DNA of 64,000 bases from Spirochaetia bacterium (GCA_963675665.1 OY776510.1:3136001-3200000); one strand, 5' to 3'. Positions 23,401 through 44,221 are shown, counted from the first letter of the stretch. The notes: generated by a model from the sequence alone, not told the origin. Translations and numbers: made by a program.

Positions 23401-24184
23401 TTTTACCTCCGCTGATAGAGCCTGCATTAACACGTACAGCCTCTTCGCCGTATATCTCCTTGAATTCGGTATCGGTCATTTTTCTGATCTCCGCATTGCT
23501 TCCCTGGTAAACAAGATTGCCGTCTCTGAGACCTATCACCCTGGTCGAATACTGCTGAACAAGATCGAGATAATGAAGACTGCATAATATTGTAATATTG
23601 CGCTGCTTGTTTATGTCTTCAAGATAGCCGAGAATCGAGTGAGCAAGAACAGGATCCAGGCTTGCAACCGGCTCGTCAGCAAGAATCATCTTGGGTTCCT
23701 GCATAAGGGCCCTTGCTATGCCTACACGCTGCTGCTGGCCTCCTGAGAGCTCGTCAGCGCGTTTTTCAGCCTGATCTGCTATTCCTACCATTTTTAAAGC
23801 CTCAAACGCCCGCTTGCGGTCTTGTGAAGGGAAATGATGGAGCAGGCTTGAACTGGGATTTACATAACCGAGCCGCCCCGACAAAACATTTGTTAAAACG
23901 CTTGAACGCTTAACAAGGTTAAAATGCTGAAAGATCATGCCTATCTGACGCCTGATTTCTCTCAGCATTTTATTGTCGGCTTTGGCCACATCAATACCGT
24001 TCCAAAGAATTTCACCTTCGGTAGGTTCTATCAGCCTATTAATGCATCTCAGCAGGGTAGATTTTCCTGAGCCGGACAGGCCGATGACAACAAGAAACTC
24101 TCCGTCTTCAACAGTAAAACTTACATTTTTAAGGGCTTCGGTTCCGTCGTCATATATTTTGGTAAGATTACGGATTTCAAGCAT
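23393..24184 (-). CDS. phnC: Phosphonate/phosphate ABC transporter ATP-binding protein
   Basis: [28 protein letters not shown] and NVLSGRLG motifs. Confidence 0.93.
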
Positions 24185-27400: not shown

Positions 27401-28750
27401 TTACAAACTTTTTAACATTGCTTGCAGTTTTTCTTTGCCTATCAGGTTGACAGGCCTGCTTTCAGTGAATTCGCGGGCCTTTCTGGAAAAACCTGAACTT
27501 GTTACAATCAAGCCCCGGCTTACCGAAGCTTTTTTCATTGCTTCGTGAATTGATCTGGCGGTGGATTCCTGTATTAGTTCGGGAACGCGGAGATACCAGA
27601 TCATCAAAGGTATTTTTTTGGCTCCTCGCCATTTTGACTCGGATTCGACGGCGATTATCTGGCAGCCGTTTTGTACGTCACCAATGTCCCTGATGCTCAT
27701 ATTCATTTCCGCTGTAAGTTTCTTGCATATTTCGAAGAATTCATCCCGCCCGGCAGTCAGGTAATCTTTCATTCTGTCGTCAGTTCGAAGGTCCTGGTAC
27801 TGGCTGAGTTTTTCTCCGACATCCTTGAAAGTAGGCTTCTTTGCATAAATAAGTTCCCACTGTTCAATCGCCTTGTCAATATCGCGTCTTTGTTCAAAGC
27901 AATGGGCAAGAAAGTACCTGGCAAAGAGGATTTCCTGGCCCGTGTTGTCGGAGTTTGCAATGGCCCTTTCCAGTTCTGTTACGGCACGTTCGTAATTCTT
28001 TGTGCTTATATAGCATATGCCCCGTTCAAGCAATGATTTTACCTTGAGATCGGGATCTCTCTGTGATTTTTCAAATGAATTCAAAGCGCCTGCGTAGTCT
28101 TTTTTGTCTTTTAGTATTTTGCCTATATAGAAATTGGCCTTATGATTTTCCTGGTTGTAACGAAGGGCCAAATCAAGCTCGGCTTTTGCCTCTCCCTGCC
28201 TTTTGTTGCGGTAATATATGCTTCCAAGTTTGAAATGCGCATCAGTATGCTGGGGATTAAGCTCAATGGCTTTTTTGAAGTGATTGACGGCACTGTCGGT
28301 TTTATTCCGGTATTCAAAAAGACTTCCGGCAAGAAAATACCATTCCGGTTCTTCGGGTTCGAGTCTGATTAAAAGCAGGTACTCTTTAAGAGCTTCTTCA
28401 GGCTGATTAAAATCGTTATAGAGTTTTGCTATGGTTTTTCTGAATTCAATCTCTTTAAGAAGCCCGGAAAAGTCGCCGTACTCGTTTATTTTTTTCATTT
28501 CCATAAGCGCAAGTTCGGATTTACCGTCGGCCAGATATGATTTGCCGAGCAGATAATGAACCTCGAAATTTCTCGGTTCGCCTGCAAGTATCTGTTTTGC
28601 CTGTTTAATGGCGGCGGAATATTTACCCTGCTTGTAGAGATCCTGAATTCCTGCTACCTTTCTAGGGGCAAGAGTAGATCTGAGAATAAAAATTAATGCA
28701 ACGGTTAATGCAATGCCGATTATTATTATAACAAGTACTATTGGTGCCAT
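27401..28750 (-). CDS. Membrane-anchored TPR protein with C-terminal Mrr-like (restriction endonuclease fold) domain
   Basis: N-terminal TM; multiple TPRs; C-terminal FFEIC..L...RGLIVTSSGFSRKA.EF...RPV.LI pattern of Mrr_cat. Confidence 0.8.
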   Translation of the reverse strand: MAPIVLVIIIIGIALTVALIFILRSTLAPRKVAGIQDLYKQGKYSAAIKQAKQILAGEPRNFEVHYLLGKSYLADGKSELALMEMKKINEYGDFSGLLKEIEFRKTIAKLYNDFNQPEEALKEYLLLIRLEPEEPEWYFLAGSLFEYRNKTDSAVNHFKKAIELNPQHTDAHFKLGSIYYRNKRQGEAKAELDLALRYNQENHKANFYIGKILKDKKDYAGALNSFEKSQRDPDLKVKSLLERGICYISTKNYERAVTELERAIANSDNTGQEILFARYFLAHCFEQRRDIDKAIEQWELIYAKKPTFKDVGEKLSQYQDLRTDDRMKDYLTAGRDEFFEICKKLTAEMNMSIRDIGDVQNGCQIIAVESESKWRGAKKIPLMIWYLRVPELIQESTARSIHEAMKKASVSRGLIVTSSGFSRKAREFTESRPVNLIGKEKLQAMLKSL

Positions 28751-28823
28751 AAAAACTCCAGTTAAAGATTAATCTGTAATTTAAGGAGTGTCAAATGATA
28801 TGCCGTAAAAAATGGGGTTTGCA

Positions 28824-29525
28824 ATGAAAAAATATGCGATTGTTATCTCTGCTGTATTTTTGTTGATTGTTCAGGCAGGCGCGCAGTCGATTTTTAAGGA
28901 TGGAGAGACCCTTTTGAGTAATAATCAGCTTAGCGAATCAGCTTTGCTGTTCGAAGAGGTTATTGAACAGGAACCGAAAAACGAGAAGGCTTATCTTTAT
29001 CTCGGTTACATATATGAAATTAAAATGGATTACAACTCGGCAATATCCGTGTTGACAAAAGGTCTCGAAAATACTTCAGGCAGCAAGGATAAGTTTTATT
29101 TCAATATAGCCAACAACTATTTCAAGGCAGGTGATTACGACACCGCAGCTGCAATGTATTCAAAAGCGCTGCAGAACAGCCGGGGATTTGCAGAACCGTA
29201 TCTGAACAGGGCAAACTGCAGGGTAAAAACCGGCGAATATTCTCTTGCCGTGAGGGATTACAATCTTTTTTTAAACATGAAGCCGAATGATCCTCAGCGG
29301 CCGGAAATTGAGAAAATGATTTCAATGCTTGAACTTACCATGGCTGAAGAAGAGACTCTTCGACAACAGGAAGAACAGAGAAGGCTGGCACAGGAAGCCC
29401 GTCAGAAAGCGCTTCTTGATTCGGTATTGAATTCACTCAGTAATGCCGGGGAAGATACTACAAATCTTTCGGCTGAATCGGAGAATATTGAGGATATTGA
29501 GATAGAATTAGGTATAGAAGATTAA
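28824..29525 (+). CDS. Secreted TPR protein with C-terminal coiled coil (alternative start 28812)
   Basis: Signal peptide; TPR motifs (AYLYLGYIY, YFNIANNY, YLNRAN); EEQRRLAQE coiled coil. Confidence 0.8.
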   Translation: MKKYAIVISAVFLLIVQAGAQSIFKDGETLLSNNQLSESALLFEEVIEQEPKNEKAYLYLGYIYEIKMDYNSAISVLTKGLENTSGSKDKFYFNIANNYFKAGDYDTAAAMYSKALQNSRGFAEPYLNRANCRVKTGEYSLAVRDYNLFLNMKPNDPQRPEIEKMISMLELTMAEEETLRQQEEQRRLAQEARQKALLDSVLNSLSNAGEDTTNLSAESENIEDIEIELGIED

Positions 29526-29538
29526 AAAGAGGATATTG

Positions 29539-31467
29539 ATGGATAGGCGTTATATAATAATCATCGCAGCTGTATTAGTCGTTGCTGCAGCTTTAATACT
29601 GTTTTTAACATTAAGACCGGGTGACGGCGGAGAAGACGTTCAGATTGAGGGTCAGCTGACGGAAGCACAGAAAATAAGGAATAATACTCTTATTCTTGCG
29701 GAAGACTATATGCAGAAAGGCGATTACCAGCGAGCACTTGACCTGCTTGACGGGCTGCTGATCAAGGACGCGTCGGATGAAGAAGTTCGGGCCCTTCGCG
29801 ACAGGGTCCTTCAGGCCCGTGAAACAGCTTCTTCCGAAGAAAAGCTGGAAGAGAAAAAACAGCAGGATGATCTTGTTGAGACGCTTGAGGAGCTTGGAGA
29901 AAGTTTCAGCCAGAATGCTCCGGTTATAAACCTTTCCGCGCAAAAGGAAGATTCGGAGGAAGAAAAACGCAGGCTTGAAGAACAACTTGCTCAGCTCGAA
30001 GAGCAGAAGAGGCTGGCCGAAGAACGCAGAAAAGAAGAAGAAGCAAGGCTCGCCGCTCTTTCCGAGGCGGAACGTCAGAAAGCTGAAAAAGTCCGTAAAT
30101 TGATTGACGAAGGCGTCAGAAAGATGGCGGATAAAAACTACTCTGACGCAAGAACCAATTTTGATGAAGCGATAAGCCTGAGCCCGAGGGAAGCCGAGGC
30201 ATTCGCCCAGAAAGGCGAATCATATTTTCAGGAAGATAAAACAAACCAGATTAATATACGGGAAGCTGTTGAATATGCGAATAAAGCGGTTGATTATGAT
30301 AAATCGCTATGGATTCCGCATAATACTCTCGGCAAGATCTATGTTGAAACAAAGAATTATTCCGAAGCGATAAAAGAATTCAAGGAAGCTACCAGGCTGA
30401 ATCCGGATAACGCGGATATTCTGTATGAACTTGGTAAAGTACAATATCGGGCCGGGCAGTTTAATGATTCGAGAATGTCTTTTGAAGGGGTAATCCATCT
30501 GGACCCTCAGCATTACAGAGCTTATTACAATTTGGGCGCTTCATTCATAAAGCTCGGAAAGGCCGGCTCGGCCCTGGATGCCTATAAAAAAGCCGTTGCG
30601 GTAAACCCGTCCTATGATTCGGCATATTTTGCCGCCGGTAATTTATTAAATCAGGCCGGCAAACTGGGCGATGCAGAAACTTATCTAAAAAAGGCGGCAA
30701 CGCTGCAACCCTCTAATGCCAGCTATCTTGATGTACTTTCCGTAGTTCTTTATAAACAGGGTAAATATACCGATGCCGAGAAATATCTGCTGAAGTCAAT
30801 TGAAATCGAACCCGACTCTGCTGAATCAAATTATAATATGGCTCTTACACTTTATAAACTGAACAGGTATTCGGAGGCTCTAGAGTATTCCGTTAAGTCC
30901 ATACAGCTTGACAATTCAAATGCTCCATACCTCTATACTCTCGGACAGATCAGTGAAGCGCTTGGAGACAAAACAAATGCGGCAGCAGTATATGAGAAAG
31001 CCGTATCAATAGACAGCAGATATATCCTGCCGAGAATTAATCTCGGAAAGATTTATGATGAAACCGGAGAATATGATAAAGCGCTTGAGCATCTTGCAAC
31101 AGCCTACAAAATGGAGCCTGAATCACTGGAAGTTAATAATAACCTGGGAAATGTTTATCTTCATACGGAGTTGTATGAAGACAGTATACGACATTACAAA
31201 AAGGCAATTGAAAAGAAACCGAACGCAACATTAATTCGCTATCACCTTGCAATTGCGTATATTGAAACCAGGCAGGAGAGCCTTGCCATAAAAACACTTG
31301 ATGAATTAATCAAGATTGACCCTAATTACTGGGACGCGTATTACAGGCTTGGAAATCTTATGTATAAATCCGGTGATGAGGAAGGGGCTTCAGCAGTTTT
31401 CAAGGCCCTTCTTGATAAAAAACCCGATTATAAAAATCGTGCCGAGATTGAAGCCCTGATAATGTAA
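29539..31467 (+). CDS. Membrane-anchored coiled-coil / multi-TPR protein
   Basis: N-terminal TM; E/K/R-rich coiled coil; more than 10 TPR repeats (NTLG, YELG, YNLG, NNLG); SD AGAGGA. Confidence 0.85.
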   Translation: MDRRYIIIIAAVLVVAAALILFLTLRPGDGGEDVQIEGQLTEAQKIRNNTLILAEDYMQKGDYQRALDLLDGLLIKDASDEEVRALRDRVLQARETASSEEKLEEKKQQDDLVETLEELGESFSQNAPVINLSAQKEDSEEEKRRLEEQLAQLEEQKRLAEERRKEEEARLAALSEAERQKAEKVRKLIDEGVRKMADKNYSDARTNFDEAISLSPREAEAFAQKGESYFQEDKTNQINIREAVEYANKAVDYDKSLWIPHNTLGKIYVETKNYSEAIKEFKEATRLNPDNADILYELGKVQYRAGQFNDSRMSFEGVIHLDPQHYRAYYNLGASFIKLGKAGSALDAYKKAVAVNPSYDSAYFAAGNLLNQAGKLGDAETYLKKAATLQPSNASYLDVLSVVLYKQGKYTDAEKYLLKSIEIEPDSAESNYNMALTLYKLNRYSEALEYSVKSIQLDNSNAPYLYTLGQISEALGDKTNAAAVYEKAVSIDSRYILPRINLGKIYDETGEYDKALEHLATAYKMEPESLEVNNNLGNVYLHTELYEDSIRHYKKAIEKKPNATLIRYHLAIAYIETRQESLAIKTLDELIKIDPNYWDAYYRLGNLMYKSGDEEGASAVFKALLDKKPDYKNRAEIEALIM

Positions 31468-31479
31468 TCTGTGCCGGGC

Positions 31480-33291
31480 TCAGAATGTCCGGCCGAACAT
31501 CCTGAATAGCTGCTCGCGCGTGATTTGCTGTATAACCGGCCTTCCGTGCGGGCATCTTGGATTTTCAAGTTTAAGAACAGCACCGGCCAGTTCCAGCGCC
31601 GTTATACTGCTGATACTGTCTCCGTCCCTGATAGCGGACCGGCATGACATCATGGCGTAGAGTTCCTTTTTAAGTTCAGATATGTTTTTTATCCCTCTGC
31701 TGAAAAAGGCGGTTAACTCATCTTCCATACCGCTGCAGATGGACGGCATGGAATTGAGCATCCATTCCCCGTCATCGGCCTGCTGAAGATCAAAACCCAT
31801 TTGTTTAAATTGTTCAATCGAATTCAGCAGAAAATGCTCCCTGGCTGATTCTACACAGAAAATGACGGGGACAAGGAGTTCCTGAACTTGTGGTTTTTCT
31901 TCGCTCAGCCTGTCGAAAATAATGCGCTCATGAGCGGCATGCTGATCTATCAGCAGGAGAGTATCACCGTGTTCGAAAAGTAAAAAAAGATTGAAAAGCT
32001 GACCGAGGTAAACAAGCGGAGCTCCCGGCGCTGCAGGATGAGGGCTCCGTGAAGGTTCGGTTATATTCCCTTTCTTTATAACCGGAGCGGCTTCGGCTGC
32101 AATTTCAGAGGAAATTTCAGAGGAAATTTCCTCAAGAGTCTGCTTGCGGAAGATGCTGTCTTTTGCAGGAGAAGAAGGAAATGCTGCAGATGTAACTGCA
32201 GCTGCAGGTCTGCCGATATCGAGGCTTTTTTGTTTTTCAGAATAAAACTGTTTACCGGTCAGGGGCGCGGAAACCCGGAATGAATTACGTTTGCCGAGAT
32301 ATGAGCCCAAAGTATCGGTAACAATATGATGAATTTCCGGCAGATTTCTGAATTTTACTTCTCGTTTGGCCGGATGAATATTAAAATCGACGTGTTCAGG
32401 AGGAATATCAATAAATAAGAAACAGACAGGATGACACCCCCCGGGAAGGAATGATGAATAGGCATAATCAACAGCCTGTACAAGGGCAAAATCGCTGATT
32501 CTGCGGTTATTTATAAATATCTGAATATACTTTCTGTCTTTCCGGTAGAGAGAAGGAGTGCCTGCAGCTGCAGTTATTGAGATTCCGTCAGTTTCAGCAG
32601 AGAAAGTATCAATAAAATTCTGATGAAACAGTCCTGCGAAGGCTGAGACTATCCTGGTTTTAAGATCTGAGGCCGGCAAAAAAAGTTTAAGCTTGTCTTC
32701 GGCGAAGTATCTGAACCCTGTTTCAAGCTGTGGAAGAGCTTTCTCTATAAAAGTTGACCTGCAAAGTGCGGATTCGGCAGAAGGACTTTTTAGAAAATTT
32801 CTGCGGCCCGGCATGGAATAAAAAAGGTCACGAGCGCTTATCAGAGTTCCTTGTGGGCCCCGAAAGGGAGAAAGATCGCGCAGTTTACCGTCCTGTATTT
32901 CCAGTTTAAAGGCTGAGCCGTCGTCTGAGACAGAACTGGTTATGCTGAGTCTCGAACAAGCTGCAATACTTGAAAGAGCTTCACCCCTGAAGCCCAGGCT
33001 TTTGGTACTGTAAATATCTTCAAAATCAGTAATTTTACTTGTGGCATGAGGAAGAAAACATTTTTGAAGATTCTCCTCATCCATTCCGCTGCCGTTGTCG
33101 ACTACACGGATTTCTTCAATACCTCCGCCGTGGATATACAGATTAATCTCGCTCGAACCGGCGTCGATTGAATTATCAAGAAGTTCCCGGACAACCGCCT
33201 GTGGACGATCAATAACTTCTCCGGCGGCTATTCTTCTTGCAACGGAGTCCCGGAGAATATTAATTCTCCGGGAATTATAAATGTCTGTCAT
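31480..33291 (-). CDS. mutL: DNA mismatch repair endonuclease MutL
   Basis: IAAGEVI.RP..VVREL.DNSIDAG, DNGSGM, HATSK, GFRGEAL, NIHPAKREV, DQHAAHER and CPHGRP motifs. Confidence 0.97.
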   Translation of the reverse strand: MTDIYNSRRINILRDSVARRIAAGEVIDRPQAVVRELLDNSIDAGSSEINLYIHGGGIEEIRVVDNGSGMDEENLQKCFLPHATSKITDFEDIYSTKSLGFRGEALSSIAACSRLSITSSVSDDGSAFKLEIQDGKLRDLSPFRGPQGTLISARDLFYSMPGRRNFLKSPSAESALCRSTFIEKALPQLETGFRYFAEDKLKLFLPASDLKTRIVSAFAGLFHQNFIDTFSAETDGISITAAAGTPSLYRKDRKYIQIFINNRRISDFALVQAVDYAYSSFLPGGCHPVCFLFIDIPPEHVDFNIHPAKREVKFRNLPEIHHIVTDTLGSYLGKRNSFRVSAPLTGKQFYSEKQKSLDIGRPAAAVTSAAFPSSPAKDSIFRKQTLEEISSEISSEIAAEAAPVIKKGNITEPSRSPHPAAPGAPLVYLGQLFNLFLLFEHGDTLLLIDQHAAHERIIFDRLSEEKPQVQELLVPVIFCVESAREHFLLNSIEQFKQMGFDLQQADDGEWMLNSMPSICSGMEDELTAFFSRGIKNISELKKELYAMMSCRSAIRDGDSISSITALELAGAVLKLENPRCPHGRPVIQQITREQLFRMFGRTF

Positions 33292-33298
33292 ATCTGAA

Positions 33299-34705
33299 CT
33301 AAAAATGGATTCTCATGTCAATCGACATGGCAAAATACGGGTTGTCAAGAACATGGGTAATTTCATCCATTGCAAGAGCACCCGTTTCCTCATCACGCGG
33401 AAGCGCGGTTGTGAACATAAGCGCTATATCGAGAGAAGGATCGAAAGGATACACTATCTCGCCGCTGATAAGGGTGTCAGGGTTCAGGAATGTGAAAGCT
33501 TCTGTCTTGTTAACTGCATTCTTTATGGAGCTGACAAGTCTTGATCTGGTGTACGACACAGAACCGTAAATTCCGGCAACCGGTATTATATCCGGCATCA
33601 GGGCTGCAGAAAGGGTGAAATAATCGTTTTCCGAAAAATCTATTGTTCCGGAAGAACTCAGTTCCCACGGCCACAGATAACCTCCTGTAAGGGTTACCGC
33701 GTCGAAAATGTTCATTGCAAGTTCACCGTATACGCCCATCGTGATGTCCTGATATGCGGAGCCTGTCGGATCTGCTTCAAGATCCTCTATGTAGCCCGTC
33801 AGGGCATCATACTGAAGTGTTTTATTTAAAAGATAATTGTTACCGTAGAATGCAGGTGTAAATATACCCTTGCTGAGACGATATTCAAGCCTGTAGTCAA
33901 GAGAGAACAGGTTGCCGAAAATACCGGCTGATACGCCGTAATTATTAAGAGACGCAAGAAAGTCTCCGGCTGAGGGGTTGTAAAAGGTTTCGGTGTACCA
34001 TGTTGAATCTTTATAAACGGTAAGCCCGGCAAAATCCGTGAAAATAGTCATATTCAGCAGGCTTATCGGCAGGCCCAAATCGAAGGCTGCGTTCAGTATC
34101 AGCGGATCGAAAAGTTTGGGTGAATCTTCAATTTCGGAATCGGGATTAATATCGGTAATTCCTGAAAGCGCTATCTGCATTGGAAAGCTGCTGCCGAACG
34201 GAATAAAAGCAAGTCTTCCGCCGAAAATGGTCGGATCGGCTGCATTGTCGAGAACCGCTTCAAAACCGAAATTCTCAAGGAATAGCCCTGTGTTGATACC
34301 GACTTTACGGACTGCAGGAAATTCAAAGTTGTTACTGAAATTGCGCATAAGAATTCCATGACCTATAGTCATGTTGTTGAGATTGCCGAATTTCAGATAG
34401 AAATCGTCGCCGTTATCGCCCCACTGGATGTATTCAATTTTGAGAAACAGATCATTAAATATGTCAAATGCAATATCCTGGGCCGTGTCCTGATCGGTTC
34501 CGAAGGACCATTCGTTATTTTCAGCGGGTTTGTACCAGCTGGACGGTTCAAAAAGATTGTCCTGGTAAATTACCGGAAGATAAAGGCTGGCCTTGAGTTT
34601 GCCTATTTCAAATTCCGGCTTGACAACAGCCTTTGCATATGTGGTCCCGTCGATAATTATTGAACCTACCTCAAAACCGAAAATGTCGCCCAGTCCGGAA
34701 AGCAT
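33299..34705 (-). CDS. Putative outer-membrane beta-barrel domain (C-terminal part of a frameshifted FecR-barrel gene)
   Basis: Amphipathic beta-strand pattern; terminal Phe; homologous to 35736-37169; frame open upstream to ~34916 with acidic linker sequence; no signal peptide of its own. Confidence 0.65.
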   Translation of the reverse strand: MLSGLGDIFGFEVGSIIIDGTTYAKAVVKPEFEIGKLKASLYLPVIYQDNLFEPSSWYKPAENNEWSFGTDQDTAQDIAFDIFNDLFLKIEYIQWGDNGDDFYLKFGNLNNMTIGHGILMRNFSNNFEFPAVRKVGINTGLFLENFGFEAVLDNAADPTIFGGRLAFIPFGSSFPMQIALSGITDINPDSEIEDSPKLFDPLILNAAFDLGLPISLLNMTIFTDFAGLTVYKDSTWYTETFYNPSAGDFLASLNNYGVSAGIFGNLFSLDYRLEYRLSKGIFTPAFYGNNYLLNKTLQYDALTGYIEDLEADPTGSAYQDITMGVYGELAMNIFDAVTLTGGYLWPWELSSSGTIDFSENDYFTLSAALMPDIIPVAGIYGSVSYTRSRLVSSIKNAVNKTEAFTFLNPDTLISGEIVYPFDPSLDIALMFTTALPRDEETGALAMDEITHVLDNPYFAMSIDMRIHF

Positions 34706-35721
34706 ATTTTCGAGAGGTCCGGATTTGGAATCTTTTTCTTCAGCATCTGCATCAGTATCGGCAGCTGCCGACGCGTCCGGAATTTTGCCTGCTGTAATTG
34801 CAGAAGCGGCAGAGCCGGTCCTGGACGCCCTGGGCGGGGATTTGGGTTTGTCTGTTTCCGTATCATCAGCGGCAGCAGCGTCGGCTGTTCCGTCTGAAGC
34901 TTTGTATCTGCAGTTTCATCATCAGCAGTACCATCGTCGGTCGCTTCATCATCAGCCGTATCGTCAGTAGTCTCTTCTACGGCCTCATCGTCACCGGTAT
35001 CTCCATCGTCTGAACCGTCATCAGCAGTTTCGTCCGTTCCGGTATCAAGCGCGGAAGAGGTATGCCCGGGAACCTGCCCCGGGTCGGTTCCGTTAAAGTC
35101 CATACCGCTGAAAATGGATGCCAGGCTTTGTGCGGATGCAGCCGTTGCAGCGAACGTATCGGCAAATACATCTGCAATCTGGCCCGAAATAACACTGATA
35201 GTGTCGCCGCTTAAAAGGCTTGAAAAAGCAACTTCGCCGTCGCGGACAGCGAGTACGCCGATAGAGTCTATGACAAAATCTGTGCCGCGGACTCCGCATA
35301 CGGCGGACTGGGTAATAATTGAATAATTTTCATATCCAAGTCCGGCCCGGGCCGCAATTACTCTGAGTTTCCCGTTGAAAAGAGAAAAATCATTGGATTC
35401 ATCGGCTGTGGTCTGAAATGCTTCAATCTGAAAGACTGAATTTTCTGAAATCTTTAGTATGGATCCGTTGGGATCAAGCTGGATTTCTGCCGAAGTATTG
35501 TAGGTTTTGATTGTGCTGCCCGGAAAAAGTTCCATGCCTATAAACACTTCGCCTATGTAATCTCCGGTGCTGTCGAAAACTTCAAGTTCGAAATCATCAT
35601 CATAATATACAAGAAATGCCGTCGGGTTTGAACTTTGCTGGGCCGTAACAGGTACGGTAAATAAAATAAGGGCGGTGAGAACAAGTCCGAAAGCTGTTAA
35701 AAATTTTGTTTTACTCTTCAT
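34666..35721 (-). CDS. FecR-domain protein (N-terminal part of a frameshifted FecR-barrel gene)
   Basis: Signal peptide; GSTIKT...AEI...GS.LKI.ENS, G.LR and T.SAVCGVRGTDF...V.DGEV FecR motifs; D/E/T-rich linker becomes out-of-frame-looking after ~34900. Confidence 0.8.
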   Translation of the reverse strand: MKSKTKFLTAFGLVLTALILFTVPVTAQQSSNPTAFLVYYDDDFELEVFDSTGDYIGEVFIGMELFPGSTIKTYNTSAEIQLDPNGSILKISENSVFQIEAFQTTADESNDFSLFNGKLRVIAARAGLGYENYSIITQSAVCGVRGTDFVIDSIGVLAVRDGEVAFSSLLSGDTISVISGQIADVFADTFAATAASAQSLASIFSGMDFNGTDPGQVPGHTSSALDTGTDETADDGSDDGDTGDDEAVEETTDDTADDEATDDGTADDETADTKLQTEQPTLLPLMIRKQTNPNPRPGRPGPALPLLQLQQAKFRTRRQLPILMQMLKKKIPNPDLSKICFPDWATFSVLR

Positions 35722-35735
35722 ATTCTATCTCCTGC

Positions 35736-37169
35736 CTAAAAAAAGTTAATAGAGCAGCTGAGGGATGAGCTTACGTCAAAATCATCCCAGGTGACTCCGA
35801 TATTGCCGTCTTCAATGTAAATCATGTCGTAAGATAAAGTGATAACGGCGGCACCGGCATTATAGTTAATAGCCAGGTTGGCCATGCTGTTTTCAGCCAA
35901 CAACAGATCAACCGGCTCGTTGATAAATCGCTTGTCATAAGACGCAGAGAAAGAGAAAGAAGGGATTAATCCGTCGTTAACAGCAAACATTGCATACAGA
36001 TGCGGGTATTCGAGAAAGTTGTGTCCTTCGGTGCTGCCTGAAGGCGGGGCTGAAAAAGGTCCGTCAACGGTGGCTGTAAAAACCAAAAGATCATCAAGAA
36101 TGGAAATACCCGTGCTTGCAAGCCAGGATATGCTGCTTTCAATATAAGGCGGATCATTTGCGTCGTAGGTATCGTTATAGATATCGTATTTAACTCCGCG
36201 GTAAAGATCATACATGTTGTCAAAATAGGCTGGTATGAAGTTATCGCCGAGAAATCTCAGCTGAAAGATGTATGGAATAATATTAAACAATCGTCCGCCG
36301 AACCCTGTCATGCCGCCTTTATTTGATCCCTGAAATGCAAGATCGCCGAAAAGCGCTAAAGTTGCAAGGTCCATGTTCAGTATCGGCAGAATGAGGTCGG
36401 AGCCCCAGACAAGAACAGGGGTAGCCGGATCTCCGTTGTTTATTGCCGTTTCATAGAAATCGGCCCGGTAGTCCGGATCAATATCGGCTGCTGCAGTGAT
36501 TCCCCACTCAAGTTCCTTGATAATCGGAACCCCGCTCCATAGAAGCGGCCTGGAATATAATCTGGCTCCGAAAACGTCGAAATGCGCCAGGTTTCCGGCA
36601 AAAGTTTCGATGCCCAGGTATGGGAAATTGAAAAGCTGGCCGTCCAGATCAAAATTCAGGCCGACAATTTTTTCATCGGGTTGAAATAAAGTATTCGAAT
36701 ACTGGCTTACAATAAAGCCGGTGCCTATTAATGCATTATCAATCTGTCCAACCTTTGCATACAGGGTATCACCTTTATTTCCCCAACGCATATATGTGAT
36801 TTTGGGCAGATATAGCTCAAGGAAGTTTGCGAAGGACCATCCTTCGGCCGGGACCCAGTCCTCTTCACGTATATCAAAACCGCTGCCGTCCGAAACAAAC
36901 CGGTAATGAAGAACAAGATCAAGACCTATGCCGAATTTGCCGATTGCAAGATCGGGTTTAAGGGCAAGAGTCTGAAAAGTTTCAGGATCTCCGCCTTCTT
37001 CTATCGGGTCGAAGGTTTCGACACCGAGCAGCAGTCCGAGTCCAAAATCAGTATTCATGCCTGATTCGGGTTCGGATTCAGTCCCGGTATTGTCCTGTGC
37101 GGTAACGGAAAAGTTCAGAACAAACATGCCGAGAAATATTAATAGAAACAATATTCTGTTTGGTCTCAT
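35736..37169 (-). CDS. Putative outer-membrane beta-barrel protein
   Basis: Signal peptide; alternating hydrophobic beta-strands; C-terminal ...SCSINFF; paralog of 33299-34705 (KP.L.IGK, KI.Y..WG..GD..Y.K.G......IG.G......SN, F.PAYF...Y). Confidence 0.7.
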   Translation of the reverse strand: MRPNRILFLLIFLGMFVLNFSVTAQDNTGTESEPESGMNTDFGLGLLLGVETFDPIEEGGDPETFQTLALKPDLAIGKFGIGLDLVLHYRFVSDGSGFDIREEDWVPAEGWSFANFLELYLPKITYMRWGNKGDTLYAKVGQIDNALIGTGFIVSQYSNTLFQPDEKIVGLNFDLDGQLFNFPYLGIETFAGNLAHFDVFGARLYSRPLLWSGVPIIKELEWGITAAADIDPDYRADFYETAINNGDPATPVLVWGSDLILPILNMDLATLALFGDLAFQGSNKGGMTGFGGRLFNIIPYIFQLRFLGDNFIPAYFDNMYDLYRGVKYDIYNDTYDANDPPYIESSISWLASTGISILDDLLVFTATVDGPFSAPPSGSTEGHNFLEYPHLYAMFAVNDGLIPSFSFSASYDKRFINEPVDLLLAENSMANLAINYNAGAAVITLSYDMIYIEDGNIGVTWDDFDVSSSLSCSINFF

Positions 37170-37227
37170 AGTAAATTCTCCTTATTGTAAAGTATATACC
37201 TTTGGTAATAATTAAACAATTTACACC

Positions 37228-40200
37228 CTAATAAATGATACTGCCGGTTAGCCCTAAACTCAAGCCGTACAGCAGGGTTTTATTTTCTGAAACGTTATTA
37301 TATTCAACTCCGAAAAGGCCGAATGCGGACAGCGTAAATATCCGGGGCAGCACAAGAGATGTTGTATGTCTGAATTCGGTACTTATCGAGGCTTCAACAT
37401 CGACAGACAGTTTTTCCTCATGAATAATAAGCTGGAAATTTTCCTCTTCTGAATCAAACAGGGGGAGATTAAACGGTGTTGCCGGGTGTTCAGTTCTTAC
37501 ATATATAAGATCTGTTTTAAATTCGGACTGCAGGTCTTCATATCCGACGGGCAGAAAAAATGAACTGTCTACTGATAAAATCTGTTCTTCGTGTCCGAAA
37601 AAAGAGCAGCCCGTGCTGAAAATGTATTTCTGTAGTATTGATTCGGAAAAGGGGTCGGCCAAAGCGGCTTCAACTGACCAGTTGAATTCATCAGAGAAGT
37701 AAAAGTCGAAAAACGAATAGACACCGGCTGCTCCGAAAAGGTTAAGGGCAGCAGACCGCCATACAAGATCAAAATCAAGACTGTCTTCGAGATCGTCGTA
37801 ATCCTTTAGTGAATTTCTTTCCAGCCCGGTACTTACCGAAAACGGTACAAGCAGATCAATAAGCCGGCTGCTGTAGTTTCTGGAAAATTCCGCGCGGATT
37901 GAGTTGTTCAGCTTGGCCTGGTCAATTTCGGCGGCAGTGCAGTCGTCGAAAACTGTTTCGGGAAGTGCGGGATCAAACAACTCACAACCTGGAATTGATG
38001 TATAAAGATAGTCCCGGCGGGAAAGCAGGTAGAACATATCGGATATATCATCCGTAAACCCGGAACTTTCCGTTGTGTGGGTAAAATCAGCTGAACGGGA
38101 AAATTCAAGCCGGGCTGAAATTGTTCCGCCTGAGGTTGATATTGATACGGGAAAGCCTGCGCTGATTTCCGCAGAATCGGTTTTTGTATTCTCGTCGTTG
38201 ATATCCGAATTTGTTTTTATTCCAAATTCAAATCCGACGGGAATTGTAAGTATTGCCGGTGAAAGTTGTATTTCTATTTTACGCTGTTCAAGCTGAAACG
38301 GGGTGAAATTAACAGCAAGGGCCGTGGCATCTGCCCATCCACTGAAATAATTGTTCCAGTCGAAAGACGAGGTGCTGTCTGAGAGCAGCATTTTATAACC
38401 GGCATCAAGGCTGAACAGGGTAGTCGACATGGTAATGTCTGAAGACCATTTGCGAAGCAGGTTTCCTTCATTATCTGCGGTTGAAAATTCTGCCGGAGTT
38501 CCGGAGAATACACCGGCATTCAGCCTGAGACTTCCGGTCTTTGAAAAGTCCCCTCCGGATGCCGACTCTGTTCTGAATGAATCGCAGAGATGCAGATAAC
38601 TGCCGACTACCGGGATATCGATTGTGTGCCCGGCGGCAAGCAGGTTAACGCCGCCGGCGTCTTTCAGGTTGCAGTCTGCTGATACTGAAGTCCCCAATAT
38701 CTCACTGCTGATTTTTGAATAGAGATTTACAACTCCGGTGTTATAATCAGCAGATGCAGACAGCGCGGCAGGACCTATAATTTCCAGATTGCCGGCAGTG
38801 AGCAGCGGCCCGGATGAACTGATTTCGATATCTCCGCCGACGCCGGCGGTAGTATGCAAAACGGGATCTGACAGCGAGACTTCATCCAGATAGAGGACCC
38901 CGCCGGAGGCATTCTCGGTTCCCGTTTCAATAAACGAAAGATCTCCCGAATCCGAGTCAAAGGTCAATTCAGCCTGTGTATTCTCAACATTATTAACAAG
39001 AACTGTTCCCGTCCCGCCGTCAGCGCCCGGTAAAAGCTCAATTTTGTTCCAGGCGGTACCGGAACCAAGCGGTATTTTCGACTTGATTCCCGAACCTTCC
39101 GAATCAACCATATTGAAAATAAGAAGAGGGGGGGCTGCTCCGGATGGTGTAAGTTCGGGACAATAGGCATGGAAAGTCACTTTGCCGTATTCCGTCGGCG
39201 GTACCGGGTAAATAACTGTGCGGATTTTCCAGTCGTCAGTCCATTCGATTCGCAGGACTTTGTTTGACTCACCCGCTGAAAGCGTATCGGCCGTAAGCGC
39301 CGCCGAGGGTGTTTCGGCGGCAGGAATCAGAGCTTCGCTTATCTCGGAAAAATCCGGTTTTACTGCGATATCAGGATCAGCATACATTACAGATCCTTCA
39401 AATGTGAAATCATCAAACATAATGCGGCCGGATGTTTCGCCGGTTCCGTTGTTTACAGCGGTTATACGAATAAACCCGGCATTTCCAAGGCGGCTGCGCG
39501 CCGCATCGCTTAAGTATAGCCTTACGGTTTTCCATCCTGTACCGGGTTTTACAAAATCTGCGGAGGAAGAAAAAAGAACCGACGCATCTGTTTTTTCGGA
39601 ATCAAGAAAACCGTTGCCGTTAAAATCTTCACTGTCCTCAATCCCGTTACTTTTTTCAAGATTATCACCGCCGATAAGTGTTCCCGATTCGGAATTCGGA
39701 TCGTTGAATATATATCCTGAAGAATAAGCGGATGTTTCAGCATCCAGGTTTCCGTCGTCGTCAAGATCTTCCGAAAGAGAGCCTGTTTCGATATAAAGAG
39801 TGATATTGCTTAAATCAGAGTCGGTTTTGCAGTCGAACGACAGCGCCCTGCTGGCGCTGAGGTCGGGGTTCTCTGAACCGTAGGCAAGAGGAATCTGTAC
39901 GCCGGCCCAACTGTTGCTTTCGGGGAGGATGTAATCCATAGCAAGGATTTCTCCGGAACGACTGTCTGTAACGGCAGAAGCAGTATAAGGGCCTGCCTTG
40001 AGCTGCCCGGAGGCTGACGAATCGGATGGCGAAAAGATCATTGATTCATCAATCTCGGCAGTATAATCCTGAAGATAATAGGAGCCGAAACTGGTCGGGA
40101 CACGATAATCCTTGTAAAGAAGAAGCCCTCTATCCTCCGGGGCAAGGCCGATATTTTCCGAAGCGGAAGCAGGGAAAACGGTATTTCTGTTAAGAGGAAC

Positions 40201-41841
40201 GCTGTACCCGTCAGCCGACATGCTTAAAAGCAGCAGGCGTCCCGCCGAGTTTTGAGACAGAAGTTTTACCCCTCCGGAAATACCGGCATTCAATTGGTAT
40301 GCATCTGTCTGATTTTCATCGGAATTCGAAAAACTCAAACCTGCAGTTATACCGCCGTATCCGCTTGTTTCTTCCCCCGGAAGCGCATACGAATCCGAGA
40401 TGTTCCAGCGTACTCCGCCGTTAAGATATGCCGAAAGATGATCGGTAATTATGAAGCTGTTGGATGATGCAAAAAGAATATCGCCGCCCGTACTGCCGGA
40501 AGATTTTTTACGGTAGTAAATTTCAATCCGGTCTTCGGAGCCGGGCCGGGTATCAAAGGTAATAACACCGTTCGATTCAGTCCATGCAGAGGTCTCAATT
40601 TCGTTTATGTATATTCTAACGGTGCCGTCGACAGGATCGTCGATCGAATATGACGAGCTTTCTTCGCGTATTACAAAAAGAAGTTTACGGTCGTCATAGC
40701 TGCCGTAAACCGAAGAATCGAGGATGATAATTCCTTTATCCGGAATTATGTCGGATGCGAGTTCAATTCGTGAGGCTGATGAGGAGGCAGCATCCGTGAT
40801 ATAAACCTTTGTTCTCCAGTATTCATCCGGAAGAACGGTGCCGAGGTTATAAGCTGCTGAATTCTCAAAAGGAGACAATATCCCCGGTTCATAAAGCATC
40901 AGCATAGTGCCCTTGACTGAATTAATAATCCAACCGGGGTCAATTCCGCTCCAGTCCGGATCCTCCGCCAGAACAAGTAGTGCCCCGGGAGATTTTTCTT
41001 CCAGAACCAGACTCCCTGTAGACGGAGACCATGAATATTCCTGATCTGACAGCAGTGAATAATATCGGCCTTCATGAAGAAATGCCTGAGTGCCGTCGGA
41101 CCCTGACTCGATATAAAAAACAGAAGCGGAAGGGCTTCCGGGAACTTCAAAATAGCGGCCTTTTACATAGTCGGATAATTCCATTTCGATTTCCGTTACC
41201 GAATCGGAACCGATATAAACCTGGCGCTGCTCTTCTTCAGGGTCAAAACGGAATAGCAGTTCGTGTTCGGAGAACGGACTGCATAAAACTGAATGAATTC
41301 CGAATGAGGAAGGGCCTCCGCCCGGAACATGGAAATAATCATTCATTGGGACATCTTCAGACATGTTTATTCCCATATTGCCGACGGAAACGGACTGGAC
41401 GATTTCTCCCTCCTGTCCAATATATCCTAATCTGAAAGTCGAATCATCAAATTCATCGCTGAAAGCCGCTTCAAAAAGGTAGCGGTTTAAAATCAGAACT
41501 GAAGCTGTAAAATCAGGTGACTGGGAAAAAGCAAAACCGGAAGAAATACCGGGGTAGGTAAGCGCCGGATTAAACCCGGTATCAGACGTCCAGCCCGTGC
41601 CGAAAGATGCAGAAGTTTCAATTTTCCAGCTTCCTGTGAAAAACATCTGTACATCTTCGCTGTCCTGTCGGGCTTCGAGAAAAGCGGAAGGGCTTTCCTC
41701 TTCCGGCAGGAGCGGTTCATCCGCGGAAAATGCCTGTTTCGGGAATAGAATAAAAATAATTAAAAACAACAGTGAAATATATTTGAAAGCATATTCGGTT
41801 GTCCGCAACATTAACGCAAAGTATATCCTGTTTTTATTCAT
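37228..41841 (-). CDS. Large outer-membrane protein with SprA/Sov-like motifs
   Basis: Signal peptide; beta-rich; terminal aromatic residue; collinear SprA-like motifs (see findings); SD GGGAG. Confidence 0.6.
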   Translation of the reverse strand: MNKNRIYFALMLRTTEYAFKYISLLFLIIFILFPKQAFSADEPLLPEEESPSAFLEARQDSEDVQMFFTGSWKIETSASFGTGWTSDTGFNPALTYPGISSGFAFSQSPDFTASVLILNRYLFEAAFSDEFDDSTFRLGYIGQEGEIVQSVSVGNMGINMSEDVPMNDYFHVPGGGPSSFGIHSVLCSPFSEHELLFRFDPEEEQRQVYIGSDSVTEIEMELSDYVKGRYFEVPGSPSASVFYIESGSDGTQAFLHEGRYYSLLSDQEYSWSPSTGSLVLEEKSPGALLVLAEDPDWSGIDPGWIINSVKGTMLMLYEPGILSPFENSAAYNLGTVLPDEYWRTKVYITDAASSSASRIELASDIIPDKGIIILDSSVYGSYDDRKLLFVIREESSSYSIDDPVDGTVRIYINEIETSAWTESNGVITFDTRPGSEDRIEIYYRKKSSGSTGGDILFASSNSFIITDHLSAYLNGGVRWNISDSYALPGEETSGYGGITAGLSFSNSDENQTDAYQLNAGISGGVKLLSQNSAGRLLLLSMSADGYSVPLNRNTVFPASASENIGLAPEDRGLLLYKDYRVPTSFGSYYLQDYTAEIDESMIFSPSDSSASGQLKAGPYTASAVTDSRSGEILAMDYILPESNSWAGVQIPLAYGSENPDLSASRALSFDCKTDSDLSNITLYIETGSLSEDLDDDGNLDAETSAYSSGYIFNDPNSESGTLIGGDNLEKSNGIEDSEDFNGNGFLDSEKTDASVLFSSSADFVKPGTGWKTVRLYLSDAARSRLGNAGFIRITAVNNGTGETSGRIMFDDFTFEGSVMYADPDIAVKPDFSEISEALIPAAETPSAALTADTLSAGESNKVLRIEWTDDWKIRTVIYPVPPTEYGKVTFHAYCPELTPSGAAPPLLIFNMVDSEGSGIKSKIPLGSGTAWNKIELLPGADGGTGTVLVNNVENTQAELTFDSDSGDLSFIETGTENASGGVLYLDEVSLSDPVLHTTAGVGGDIEISSSGPLLTAGNLEIIGPAALSASADYNTGVVNLYSKISSEILGTSVSADCNLKDAGGVNLLAAGHTIDIPVVGSYLHLCDSFRTESASGGDFSKTGSLRLNAGVFSGTPAEFSTADNEGNLLRKWSSDITMSTTLFSLDAGYKMLLSDSTSSFDWNNYFSGWADATALAVNFTPFQLEQRKIEIQLSPAILTIPVGFEFGIKTNSDINDENTKTDSAEISAGFPVSISTSGGTISARLEFSRSADFTHTTESSGFTDDISDMFYLLSRRDYLYTSIPGCELFDPALPETVFDDCTAAEIDQAKLNNSIRAEFSRNYSSRLIDLLVPFSVSTGLERNSLKDYDDLEDSLDFDLVWRSAALNLFGAAGVYSFFDFYFSDEFNWSVEAALADPFSESILQKYIFSTGCSFFGHEEQILSVDSSFFLPVGYEDLQSEFKTDLIYVRTEHPATPFNLPLFDSEEENFQLIIHEEKLSVDVEASISTEFRHTTSLVLPRIFTLSAFGLFGVEYNNVSENKTLLYGLSLGLTGSIIY

Positions 41842-41893: not shown

Positions 41894-42829
41894 ATGGATA
41901 TTAATGAAACAGACAAATTGAAGGCGGCTGCGTTTATACAGAGATTGATGGCTAATCCTGCCCTTAAAAGTTTTTCACCGCTGCAGCGGGAAGAACAGAT
42001 ACTTCAGTTTCTTACCGTAAATGCATCACAACTTTATCCCACCCTGTCATCCGGCTCTTTTTTTGCAGGCAAAAACTGGGAATCGATATGCAGAATACTG
42101 TTCAATGTTCTTTATGAAACAATAAACAAGGAAGTAGTTCCCGAGGCAGGATTACTGATCAACAGGCTTGATTTTACTTTCTTTACTTTTCTCAGGCAGG
42201 CTAATATCGATGAAGGCAGCGCCAAGCAGACTGTAATAAGCCTGATTGAAAAGATGTTGGCCAATGAACAGGCAAGAAGAATTCTGGCCGGATCTCTGGC
42301 TGCAATCACCAACAATATTGTAAAAAAATATATTGCTGAAATTTATCAACGGCGCAAATACGTTCATTTTGAAATTATGAAAGTAGAACGTCTTAAGATT
42401 GGAGAGAAAGAAGCGGAAAATATGATTTCGCTGGTTATGCTTCTTAAACCGCTTGTTTATCTGTTTGCTCCGCAGGGGCAGTCTGTAAAAAATACCGCTA
42501 ACGGACAGCTTTTTCCTGTTCATTTTACGGCAAATATTGCGCAGAACCTTGCACAGAAAACACCGGCTATTCCGGAAAAAGTTTTTTTAAGCGCCATGAA
42601 TTCCAATTCGTCATTTGCCGACTACAATAAACTTGAAGCAACAGCAAGGATGGGGAATGTTCTTGTTTCAATGTGCCGGAATTACAAACCTGAAGCAAAG
42701 AAAGACCGGGGCGCAGATACTGCGATAAAAAGCTGGATAAATGTTGCCAGAAAGAATTACAAATTTTATGGATATGATATAAAAATGCTGGATGAACTTT
42801 ATAATATAGCTGCAGATAACGGATGGTAG
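41894..42829 (+). CDS. Hypothetical cytoplasmic alpha-helical protein
   Basis: 311-aa ORF with no TM; conserved-looking C-terminus DRGADT...SW..VAR.NYKFYG.D..ML.ELY.IA..NGW. Confidence 0.75.
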   Translation: MDINETDKLKAAAFIQRLMANPALKSFSPLQREEQILQFLTVNASQLYPTLSSGSFFAGKNWESICRILFNVLYETINKEVVPEAGLLINRLDFTFFTFLRQANIDEGSAKQTVISLIEKMLANEQARRILAGSLAAITNNIVKKYIAEIYQRRKYVHFEIMKVERLKIGEKEAENMISLVMLLKPLVYLFAPQGQSVKNTANGQLFPVHFTANIAQNLAQKTPAIPEKVFLSAMNSNSSFADYNKLEATARMGNVLVSMCRNYKPEAKKDRGADTAIKSWINVARKNYKFYGYDIKMLDELYNIAADNGW

Positions 42830-42836
42830 GGGCGAA

Positions 42837-43934
42837 ATGGAAAAGAAGAATAACGAAATTATAGAGAATATTGTTATGGCCGCGATTTTTCTTGTTCTTG
42901 TACAGACTTTCCTGGAAGATCTTGCGGTTGTTGCCGGATGGACCTGGACCGTTAGAAAAACTCTTGTTTTAACGGGGTTCTGTTTTGATCTTTTTTTCAC
43001 AATCGAATTTCTTTCCAGATTATACCGAGCTGTAGAAAGAGGAAACGTCAGGGAATATCTGATATTAAAAAGAGGATGGATAGATCTGCTTGCTTCAATA
43101 CCGCTGCTTCTGCTTAATTCGGGACCTTCGGCACTGGCTGTTATTCTCGGCGGAGGAGCAATCAGCGGAGCGGCCGGTATCCTGAATGTTCTGAAGGTAA
43201 TTAAGGCAGTACGGATTGCCAGAATTCTAAGACTTTTGAGAGTGTTAAAAATCTTCAGACAGATAAAAAATACTGAGTCTGTTATGGCCCAGAGGCATGT
43301 AACTATGGTTACTACCATGGGTGTTTCGGTTTTTGTTTTTGTTCTGCTGATTGCGTCGGTATTCACCCAAATGCTTCCTGTAACAACGGTTGAAAAAGAA
43401 AATGAGAAAAAGGTTATTGAAATAATGATGGCATGGGCCGAAGGAGATGAATCGGCTGCCGTGAATTACTCGGATCTGCTGATTGTTAAAAAAGACGGTG
43501 AAACTGTTTTTTCACGTTATGATAATGAGTATTATACGGAAAACTTCGGTTACAGTGATTACCTGTATTCGGAATATCTCGGAAATGAATATTTTTTCGA
43601 TTTAAGAGGTACATCCGGGATCCAGTCAATGAACAATCTGATTTATTTCATCATCATTCTTGTACTTGTAATGGCCTTTACTTTTATATACAGTCCGCAT
43701 TTCGCAATGACCGTCAGCGATCCAATTCATGTAATGCGGAGAGGCTTTGATGAGAATTCATATAACTATGAAGTCAGGATTATCAGGGAGTATGAAAACG
43801 ACGATATTTTCCGGCTGGCTGAAGGGTATAACGACACTTATCTTCCGATGAAGGACCGTAACCAGGCTGAAAACGGTGAAATTGATGCGGATTCGCTTGA
43901 ACTTAAAATGGATGATATCCAGAACATGTTCTGA
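42837..43934 (+). CDS. Ion_trans-type voltage-sensor membrane protein with HAMP-like tail
   Basis: S2 FDLFFTIEFLSR, S3 WIDLLASIP, S4 with K/R at every third residue, two more TMs, then SDPI..M....DDIFRLAEGYN. Confidence 0.8.
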   Translation: MEKKNNEIIENIVMAAIFLVLVQTFLEDLAVVAGWTWTVRKTLVLTGFCFDLFFTIEFLSRLYRAVERGNVREYLILKRGWIDLLASIPLLLLNSGPSALAVILGGGAISGAAGILNVLKVIKAVRIARILRLLRVLKIFRQIKNTESVMAQRHVTMVTTMGVSVFVFVLLIASVFTQMLPVTTVEKENEKKVIEIMMAWAEGDESAAVNYSDLLIVKKDGETVFSRYDNEYYTENFGYSDYLYSEYLGNEYFFDLRGTSGIQSMNNLIYFIIILVLVMAFTFIYSPHFAMTVSDPIHVMRRGFDENSYNYEVRIIREYENDDIFRLAEGYNDTYLPMKDRNQAENGEIDADSLELKMDDIQNMF

Positions 43935-44221
43935 TGATTGTTTCCATGATACAATTTGTTTTTGAACTTCCTGAAGTCGAAAACATAAAAGATAAAAGAC
44001 GAATTGTAAAATCCTTCCGTGATAAACTAATCAAGAAATTTCATGTTACTGCTGCAGAAGTAGATCTTCAGGATTCTTTGAGATTTACACAGATTGGTGC
44101 AGCATTGGTTTCAAATTCAAAAATCTACGGCGAGTCCGTAATGCAGAAGATCCTGAAATTTGCTGAAGATGAAGTGCCGGGGCGCCTTCATGATGTCGAG
44201 ATTTATTCGGAAAGTTATTGA
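43934..44221 (+). CDS. DUF503 (YlxP-like) family protein
   Basis: KDKRRIVKS..DKL..KF.V.AAEV..QD......IG.A.VSNS pattern. Confidence 0.88.
   Translation: MIVSMIQFVFELPEVENIKDKRRIVKSFRDKLIKKFHVTAAEVDLQDSLRFTQIGAALVSNSKIYGESVMQKILKFAEDEVPGRLHDVEIYSESY

Follow-up and report, generated by a model that had tools for sequence, protein, structure and literature searches.

A conserved spirochaete gene module with a remote SprA homologue, two paired paralogous beta-barrels and a FecR-like domain on an acidic tether

Among type IX secretion system (T9SS) proteins, SprA is a capped barrel of 36 strands with a lateral opening that is bound by PorV or by a Plug, and it is extended by the tetratricopeptide repeat (TPR) lipoprotein SprE and by SkpA on its N terminus, as the available part of one report describes it (PMC10994853). 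T9SS-type translocons are regarded as a speciality of the Bacteroidota and the Fibrobacteres-Chlorobi-Bacteroidetes (FCB) group; in the accessible portion of a genome survey, T9SS is recorded in 60 of 97 Bacteroidetes genomes and in none elsewhere (PMC4793230). FecR cleaves itself between Gly181 and Thr182, and FoxR does so by an N-O acyl shift, according to the excerpt of PMC12036975 that could be consulted. For spirochaetes, in which the building of the outer membrane and the movement of protein to and across it are poorly understood, the section available of another paper notes a GT motif in LipL45 and LIC_20185 (PMC13719327). Here we describe a cluster of four co-directional genes, G1, G2, G3 and mutL, at positions 31480-41841 of a 64,000-nucleotide (nt) stretch of the genome of a Spirochaetia bacterium (GCA_963675665.1 OY776510.1:3136001-3200000; hereafter, the window). 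The original prediction for this DNA had called these genes, in order, SprA-like, beta-barrel, FecR-beta-barrel and mutL. We show that the cluster is a conserved module comprising a SprA-related protein, two strictly paired paralogous barrels, and a FecR-like domain with a GT motif on an acidic tether, and that mutL is tightly appended to it in the Spirochaetales.

G1 (37228..41841, minus strand) is an open reading frame (ORF) of 1537 amino acids (aa) with a putatively secreted product. By the curated models it is not a SprA: alone it scores 14.9 bits against TIGR04189, with a cut-off of 200 (E = 0.0028, aa 117-231). In an alignment of 30 orthologues (A2), 5 members have weak TIGR04189 matches at E <= 0.1 and none of the 30 matches Pfam SprA_N (PF14349) at the same threshold; one Atlas neighbour cluster carries PF14349 in 12% of its members. 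The A2 profile, searched against 5.8e9 proteins, gave 25 matches. Of these, 22 are family members of 1352-1727 aa, all named ones being from Spirochaetales or Treponema sp., and three are SprA-type proteins of 2053-2344 aa that carry PF14349 (P0143, P0144 and P0145, with E values of 1.5e-13, 1.8e-9 and 4.5e-6), one of them named as the SprA of a Bacteroidota bacterium. All three pass TIGR04189 (446, 1032 and 979 bits against the cut-off of 200), and a profile made from them (A6) matches the solved Flavobacterium johnsoniae SprA, 6H3I_A, at E = 6.9e-193. Comparison of A2 with A6 by hhalign gave a probability of 99.46% and an E value of 3.2e-22 over 892 columns, pairing hidden Markov model columns 92-1058 of G1 with columns 269-1422 of 2266 of SprA. 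This places the SprA-homologous part of G1 at aa ~103-1011 (38809..41535, minus strand, approximate ends). At the level of profile comparison, G1 is thus shown to be a true but remote and shortened SprA homologue over its first ~1000 residues, and not a member of the SprA family, so that "SprA-like" holds as distant kinship and fails as family assignment. G1 and SprA (or Sov) have in common the motif GY.G.E.E..Q.V..GN and a beta-sandwich with weak likeness to phage tail proteins, and both have an aromatic C-terminal residue and are Sec-exported, G1 putatively so. In contrast to SprA, G1 is ~800 aa shorter (1537 versus 2053-2403 aa), comes from the Spirochaetota and has a different barrel family for neighbours.

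The C-terminal ~520 aa of G1 (37228..38808, minus strand), which end in an aromatic residue, are family-specific: their profile (A4) aligns with the SprA profile at an hhalign probability of 0.3%, and this part of G1 found no match among Protein Data Bank (PDB) sequences at E <= 10. Searched against 1.84e9 representatives, A4 had 637 matches at E <= 1e-3, the best 150 all G1-like, and the last ~500 aa appear to define a large family of their own. A crude script finds segments of alternating hydrophobicity to be densest in this part, at a density similar to that of G2; as it picks up just 9-12 of the G2 model's 22 strand elements, the evidence is weak. PDB sequence searches with G1, G2, G3a (the first of the two ORFs of G3, described below) and the profiles A1, A2 and A4 gave no informative match, A2 reaching no SprA chain at E <= 1; PHROGs gave no match for G1, G2 or G3a.

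Two short segments of G1 deserve separate mention. At aa 393-441 (40518..40664, minus strand) lies a beta-sandwich-like stretch that weakly matches phage distal-tail and tail-tube families (DUF2460 at E = 0.0033; TIGR02217 in 3 of 30 family members); at the equivalent position, bona fide SprA proteins have weak matches to tail-tube families (NF052337, phrog_807). Right after the signal peptide, at aa 42-61 (41659..41718, minus strand), is the acidic motif LPEEEAPxxLF, found in many orthologues (25 of 51 by the strict pattern), a candidate periplasmic docking segment.

G2 (35736..37169, minus strand) encodes 477 aa with a signal peptide and is a predicted large beta-barrel. An AlphaFold2 model built on a 30-sequence alignment has 22 strand elements, with a mean predicted local distance difference test score (pLDDT) of 79.4 and a predicted template modeling score (pTM) of 0.72. 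Foldseek found 161 PDB matches for it at E <= 1e-3, and the matches listed are outer-membrane barrels, in agreement with the original prediction's call of a beta-barrel. The best is the alginate exporter AlgE (5d5d; E = 5.7e-7, TMq 0.37, TMt 0.42). An analogy with PorV had also been drawn. The likeness goes as far as a smaller outer-membrane barrel proposed as partner of a large pore, and beyond this analogy the comparison did not bear out: the TodX match has a TM-score of 0.20 (TodX/FadL, 0.20-0.22), Toluene_X (PF03349) is matched by 1 of 30 family members, at E = 0.041, and there is no match to a T9SS family. The FadL fold has 14 strands; G2 and G3 have more strand elements. On the model, G2 is a generic large barrel and not PorV-like.

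A search with G2 returned 225 proteins at E <= 1e-3, and all that carry an organism name are from spirochaetes, except one labelled "bacterium." Its 30 nearest Atlas clusters are all unnamed and from the Spirochaetota; the nearest named ones are porin families, with scores of 0.90-0.91. Among 30 G2 members the best matches to Pfam families are at chance level. The nearest named relative is leptospiral ImpL63, whose model (NF047543) is weakly matched by 21 of 30 family members (best E = 1.6e-9), with the matches lying around a conserved W/Y-G-x-K-G-D...G-x-G-F block; G2 itself scores 17.8 bits against a cut-off of 1000. In contrast to G2, a predicted barrel, ImpL63 served in Triton X-114 fractionation as a marker associated with the inner membrane and showed little surface biotinylation, and the outer-membrane proteins OmpL36 and OmpL37 were likewise largely detergent-insoluble in that study, as far as the available part of it goes (PMC2698987).

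The barrel half of G3 (G3b) aligns with G2 by BLASTP at 30% identity over 331 aa (E = 2e-19), a kinship that the original prediction had missed. When the G2 profile was run over one genome per species, 152 relatives were confirmed, and the best 80 were examined as loci; a quick maximum-likelihood tree was made of 29 G2 and 29 G3 barrels, from the window and 28 of the 80 loci. The branch between G2 and G3b has a Shimodaira-Hasegawa-like approximate likelihood ratio (SH-aLRT) support of 100. The duplication must predate the Spirochaetaceae and Treponema-like lineages, with both copies kept, because each side of the branch holds both Spirochaetaceae and Treponemataceae/Breznakiellaceae. These data show that G2 and the G3 barrel are paralogues that arose by an ancient duplication within a beta-barrel family specific to the Spirochaetota. 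No further copy of this barrel was found in the window. We also considered a "split SprA," in which G2 and G3 would be the missing C-terminal half of SprA, and rejected it, as neither SprA nor the G1 C terminus gave an hhalign match to the G2 family.

G3 begins with a signal peptide, and its FecR-like domain (G3a aa 71-164; 35230..35511, minus strand) starts ~40 residues after the cleavable-looking site. The domain matches PF04773 at E = 5.1e-8 and 33.7 bits, above the gathering cut-off of 24, and PF04773 is annotated on nearly all G3 homologues. Gly146-Thr147, in the sequence GVRGTDF (35281..35286, minus strand), coincides with the self-cleavage site Gly181-Thr182 of Escherichia coli FecR; the probability of this alignment, to a single-sequence template, is low, and the homology of the domain comes from Pfam. 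The motif G[VIL][RK]GT is present in 62 of the 63 complete G3 orthologues (685-819 aa) on which these statistics rest. In contrast to FecR and FoxR, G3 has neither a cytoplasmic anti-sigma part nor an inner-membrane anchor, the domain being tethered instead to an outer-membrane-type barrel, and no gene for an extracytoplasmic function (ECF) sigma factor or a TonB-dependent transducer adjoins it. LipL45 and other leptospiral FecR-domain proteins resemble G3 in being spirochaete envelope proteins with a FecR domain and GT motif; the LipL45 model NF033165 matches the G3 domain at E = 2.4e-9 and 36.7 bits, below its cut-off of 350. LipL45, however, is a lipoprotein and lacks a barrel; G3 carries a barrel at its C terminus, and its signal peptide is of type I.

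Between the FecR domain and the barrel lies an acidic tether rich in Pro, Glu and Asp (34706..35109, minus strand, approximate ends). In the 63 orthologues it is 44-160 aa long (median 77), with a median of 27% Asp plus Glu and 5% Lys plus Arg; it is preceded by a conserved "DP..VPG," and is often rich in EP/PE and, in a few lineages, in KP/KE. Its composition recalls the proline-rich spacer with which TonB spans the periplasm.

The original prediction had treated G3 as a single gene, reading through a frame break. There are two ORFs in this sequence: G3a (34666..35721, minus strand), the 351-aa 5' ORF with signal peptide, FecR domain, acidic linker and out-of-frame tail, and G3b, which carries the barrel in a second frame (33299..34915 from stop to stop, minus strand) and has no signal peptide of its own. 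Counted from its first ATG, at 34705, G3b is 33299..34705, 468 aa, and overlaps G3a in a different frame; the source assembly's own protein for the barrel half is the 468-aa P0147. The break was located with P0146, an intact 814-aa relative that is 90% identical and carries PF04773: tblastn of P0146 on the window runs in frame +2 up to 34906 and in frame +1 from 34897, a net -1 change within 34897..34906 (minus strand). Past it, G3a continues for ~89 out-of-frame residues, and the upstream extension of the G3b frame still reads as acidic linker. An imperfect tandem repeat of 15 nt x 2, at 34906-34935, abuts the break. FecR-like and barrel matches fall in one ORF in 68 of 70 related loci. As to the two exceptions, G3 of L037 (11321..13553) is split at the linker-barrel junction, and that of L034 (6561..8418) has two breaks, the first in the linker. 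The low-complexity linker looks indel-prone, since both of these loci also break in or near it. We considered programmed frameshifting and rejected it as unlikely, with 68 of the 70 orthologous loci in one frame and merely a weak A-AAG context at the break, by eye.

Because the barrel half as encoded here lacks an export signal, we infer either an inactive G3 in this strain or a break that arose in assembly. That it is an error of assembly or sequencing, the gene being intact in the organism, seems to us slightly short of an even call, the alternative being a real and recent inactivating mutation. The break sits in a low-complexity, repeat-containing linker beside the 15-nt repeat, and the two other split loci, both in metagenome-assembled genomes, are broken in or near the linker as well (L037, and the first break of L034). 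The barrel half also shows no sign of decay, with its 90% identity to P0146 and an end branch of 0.33, the same as that of its sister L003. Against an error, the assembly does not look error-prone overall, because window genes other than G3 with curated-model matches appear to be of full length (for example lon, recJ, serC, aconitase and mutL). Moreover, there is a genome 99% identical in G1 and G2, yet no intact G3 of ~99% identity surfaced, a mere hint that the break is shared.

The cluster has the look of an operon. The gaps, from ORF coordinates, are 58 nt (G1-G2), 14 nt (G2-G3) and 7 nt between G3 and mutL (31480..33291, minus strand; 603 aa), whose identity is clear from four Pfam domains, including ATPase, DNA_mis_repair and MutL_C, and from TIGR00585 (E = 6.9e-129; 431 bits, cut-off 180). 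On one side the cluster adjoins a convergent TPR gene, whose end is at 31467, and on the other a divergent gene with its start at 41894. Shine-Dalgarno-like sites precede G2 (AAGGAG), G3 (AGGAG) and G1 (GGGAG) by 5-9 nt; none is obvious before mutL. There is no terminator-like hairpin inside the intergenic gaps. Across predicted terminators (17, versus 12.3 +/- 3.0 in shuffles) and promoters (19, versus 16.6 +/- 4.6), neither count rises above shuffled sequence, and an Rfam scan of 31000-42400 matched no family. Judged by eye, the N termini of G1, G2 and the 351-aa G3a ORF look like Sec signal peptides, and the products end in ...SIIY (G1), ...INFF (G2) and ...RIHF (G3). The gene order, the gaps, the signal peptides on the first three products, their aromatic ends and the want of an obvious terminator had all been read in the same way by the original prediction. 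A C-terminal Phe or Tyr is found in 30 of 30 G1, 28 of 30 G2 and 30 of 32 G3 sequences. G2 thus combines the signal peptide, barrel fold and C-terminal aromatic residue of a substrate of the machinery for beta-barrel assembly (BAM); in G1 and G3 the signal peptide and terminal aromatic are seen and the barrel is presumed, for G3 through its paralogy with G2.

Neighbours in the 80 best loci (79 titled as spirochaetes and one, L030, as "uncultured bacterium") were scored by tblastn with the window proteins. Where more than 900 nt were available downstream of G2, the FecR match of G3 is present there in 74 of 74 loci, and where there were more than 2600 nt the G3 barrel is present in 64 of 64. 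G1 lies upstream of G2 in 66 of the 74 loci with more than 300 nt on that side; in four of the eight misses just 330-1600 nt are available, and the poorly conserved C terminus of G1 could escape detection. Of the 53 loci with more than 4500 nt of room, 50 have mutL after G3, the misses being L056, L071 and L080. The spacing differs from junction to junction: from the G2 stop to the start of G3 there are 9-22 nt (median 14) in 61 of 63 loci; the median gap is 12 nt from G3 to mutL (n = 58) and 82.5 nt from G1 to G2 (n = 40), where it reaches 1116 nt. Most Spirochaetales loci have a wider common order, with DUF503, ion-channel and up311 genes divergent from G1, then G1-G2-G3-mutL, then a convergent TPR gene. 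In the Treponema-like loci L060, L063, L070 and L071, the up311 and ion-channel genes are gone and G1-G2-G3 is kept with DUF503; mutL does not follow G3 in L060 or L071, and the contigs of L063 and L070 end inside G3. Conservation of the neighbourhood, which had been suggested as a check, therefore extends across Spirochaetales and Treponema-like lineages, where independent surroundings for the three genes would have told against the idea of a joint machine. The view of mutL as a passenger also gains from its loss at Treponema-like loci where G1-G2-G3 stay together.

The neighbours on either side are as follows. Divergent from G1, at 41894..44221 (plus strand), are genes for a 311-aa protein without annotation or signal peptide, an Ion_trans channel and a DUF503 protein, which are kept beside G1 in most loci. 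Convergent on mutL are a 643-aa TPR protein with an N-terminal membrane anchor (29536..31467, plus strand), beside mutL in most loci, and a 237-aa TPR protein with a type I signal peptide (28812..29525, plus strand). These adjoining TPR genes encode no lipoproteins and are not in the operon.

We read the region, at about even confidence, as a vertically inherited envelope gene module of the Spirochaetota, co-transcribed with mutL, that specifies a SprA-related outer-membrane machine. Several observations weigh against this. G1 fails both curated SprA models, its profile does not reach the SprA sequence in the PDB directly, and its C-terminal third has no similarity to SprA in the profile comparison. 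The Foldseek TM-scores of G2 are low, at most 0.42, and speak for generic barrel likeness only, and its nearest named relative, in the available account, is an inner-membrane-associated marker with little surface biotinylation. A scan of 50 window ORFs with NCBIfam found no other T9SS component (GldK/L/M/N or PorK/L/M/N, PorV, PorU, SprE/PorW and others), no CTD-bearing substrate and no T9SS-type family (PorW/SprE models gave generic, TPR-level matches below cut-off); because no other T9SS family is present among these ORFs, the module is not a T9SS. At four loci with ample room (L036, L048, L052 and L080), G2-G3 has no G1 upstream, the space holding housekeeping genes instead (DnaK, ComM-like, RNase H, UvrB or GGDEF). 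Finally, adjacency is itself weak evidence here, because the whole surrounding gene order is conserved in the Spirochaetales.

The four loci without G1 count in favour of a different explanation, in which G2 and G3 form a self-contained device of two unlike barrels, independent of G1, whose tethered, self-cleaving FecR-like domain anchors them or signals to the periplasm or protoplasmic cylinder, and G1 is a separate outer-membrane protein that merely lies upstream. The invariant adjacency of G2 and G3 (74 of 74, with gaps of ~14 nt) fits this, as do the longer and more variable G1-G2 gap and the conservation of both GT motif and tether; ImpL63, too, is recovered in the protoplasmic-cylinder fraction, where a firmly tethered barrel might also be found (PMC2698987, in the part available). 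G1 is nonetheless directly upstream in 66 of 74 loci, including Treponema-like loci with changed neighbours, and we regard independence from G1 as a possible but doubtful account. Shared descent alone could go further and explain all three as functionally unrelated outer-membrane proteins, lying together and by mutL through conserved gene order. The genes for up311, Ion_trans, DUF503, TPR643 and mutL do keep the same order in most loci, and all 80 loci examined, the best of 152, come from one phylum. Yet 61 of 63 loci have G2 and G3 spaced by 9-22 nt, which argues for coupled expression; both paralogues have been retained from a time before Spirochaetaceae and Treponema-like families split; and the three genes stay together at loci that have lost mutL, up311 and the ion channel. 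We consider a lack of any functional relation distinctly unlikely.

Least probable of all, and in our view barely credible, is that G2 and G3 are polysaccharide export barrels of the AlgE/EpsX type. Of the structures compared, AlgE matches the G2 model best, one family member is named "Alginate export domain-containing" in UniRef, and 18-strand barrels of the EpsX type are also closest to AlgE, in the portion available of a preprint (bioRxiv 10.1101/2022.04.04.486985). The TM-scores of just 0.37-0.42 are, however, matched by many unrelated barrels; Pfam Alginate_exp is found in 0 of 30 A1 members at E <= 0.1, leaving G2 with no sequence-family match, and the window holds no gene for polysaccharide synthesis or outer-membrane polysaccharide export (OPX), and thus no glycan pathway as context.

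If the reading as a SprA-related outer-membrane machine is correct, G1, G2 and G3 would leave the cytoplasm through Sec and enter the outer membrane with the help of BAM. There G1 could form a large capped pore of the SprA type, and G2 and G3, made together in a fixed ratio, might work as a hetero-pair beside or with it. The tethered FecR domain, possibly self-cleaved as in FecR and FoxR, would reach across the periplasm, grip a partner segment, and gate the machine or signal to it; the module would act without the motor and hub of the T9SS. The fullest form of this idea is an ancient spirochaete machine for secretion or envelope assembly, with a SprA-type pore free of the T9SS motor, docked hetero-barrels and a self-cleaving FecR tether for gating or coupling. 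We offer it as a speculation that is rather unlikely as a whole.

The finding amounts to a relative of the SprA fold that occurs in a new phylum and has a new set of partners. The full-text literature searched, which covers few subscription journals, contained no published description of a spirochaete SprA homologue or of a FecR-barrel fusion. A conserved spirochaetal SprA homologue, always accompanied by a unique pair of barrels and a tethered FecR-like domain, extends the known range of the SprA fold family and supplies a concrete three-gene candidate that can be tested in cultivable, non-pathogenic relatives with the trio, such as Sediminispirochaeta smaragdinae, whose G2 homologue is P0061, or Gracilinema caldarium. 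The range of the self-cleaving FecR domain is likewise extended, to fusion with an outer-membrane barrel and not an inner-membrane anti-sigma factor. Were a motor-free SprA-type machine to prove real, SprA-type transport would not be confined to the FCB group, and spirochaetes would have a new outer-membrane export system.

Three ORFs elsewhere in the window, all on the minus strand, have uncommon architectures. A 449-aa protein (27401..28750) joins TPR repeats to a C-terminal Mrr_cat domain (PF04471, E = 1.6e-7, aa 337-446), an unusual fusion. In a 228-aa protein (57375..58061), an N-terminal excisionase/MAD1-like helix-turn-helix (NF047737, E = 7.7e-16, aa 10-56) precedes a domain like the EIIA-fructose/PtsN of the phosphotransferase system (PTS). 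The third, at 21892..23433, is a PhnE-type permease ORF of 513 aa in which the PhnE model covers the C-terminal 200 residues only, leaving the N-terminal ~310 aa unexplained.

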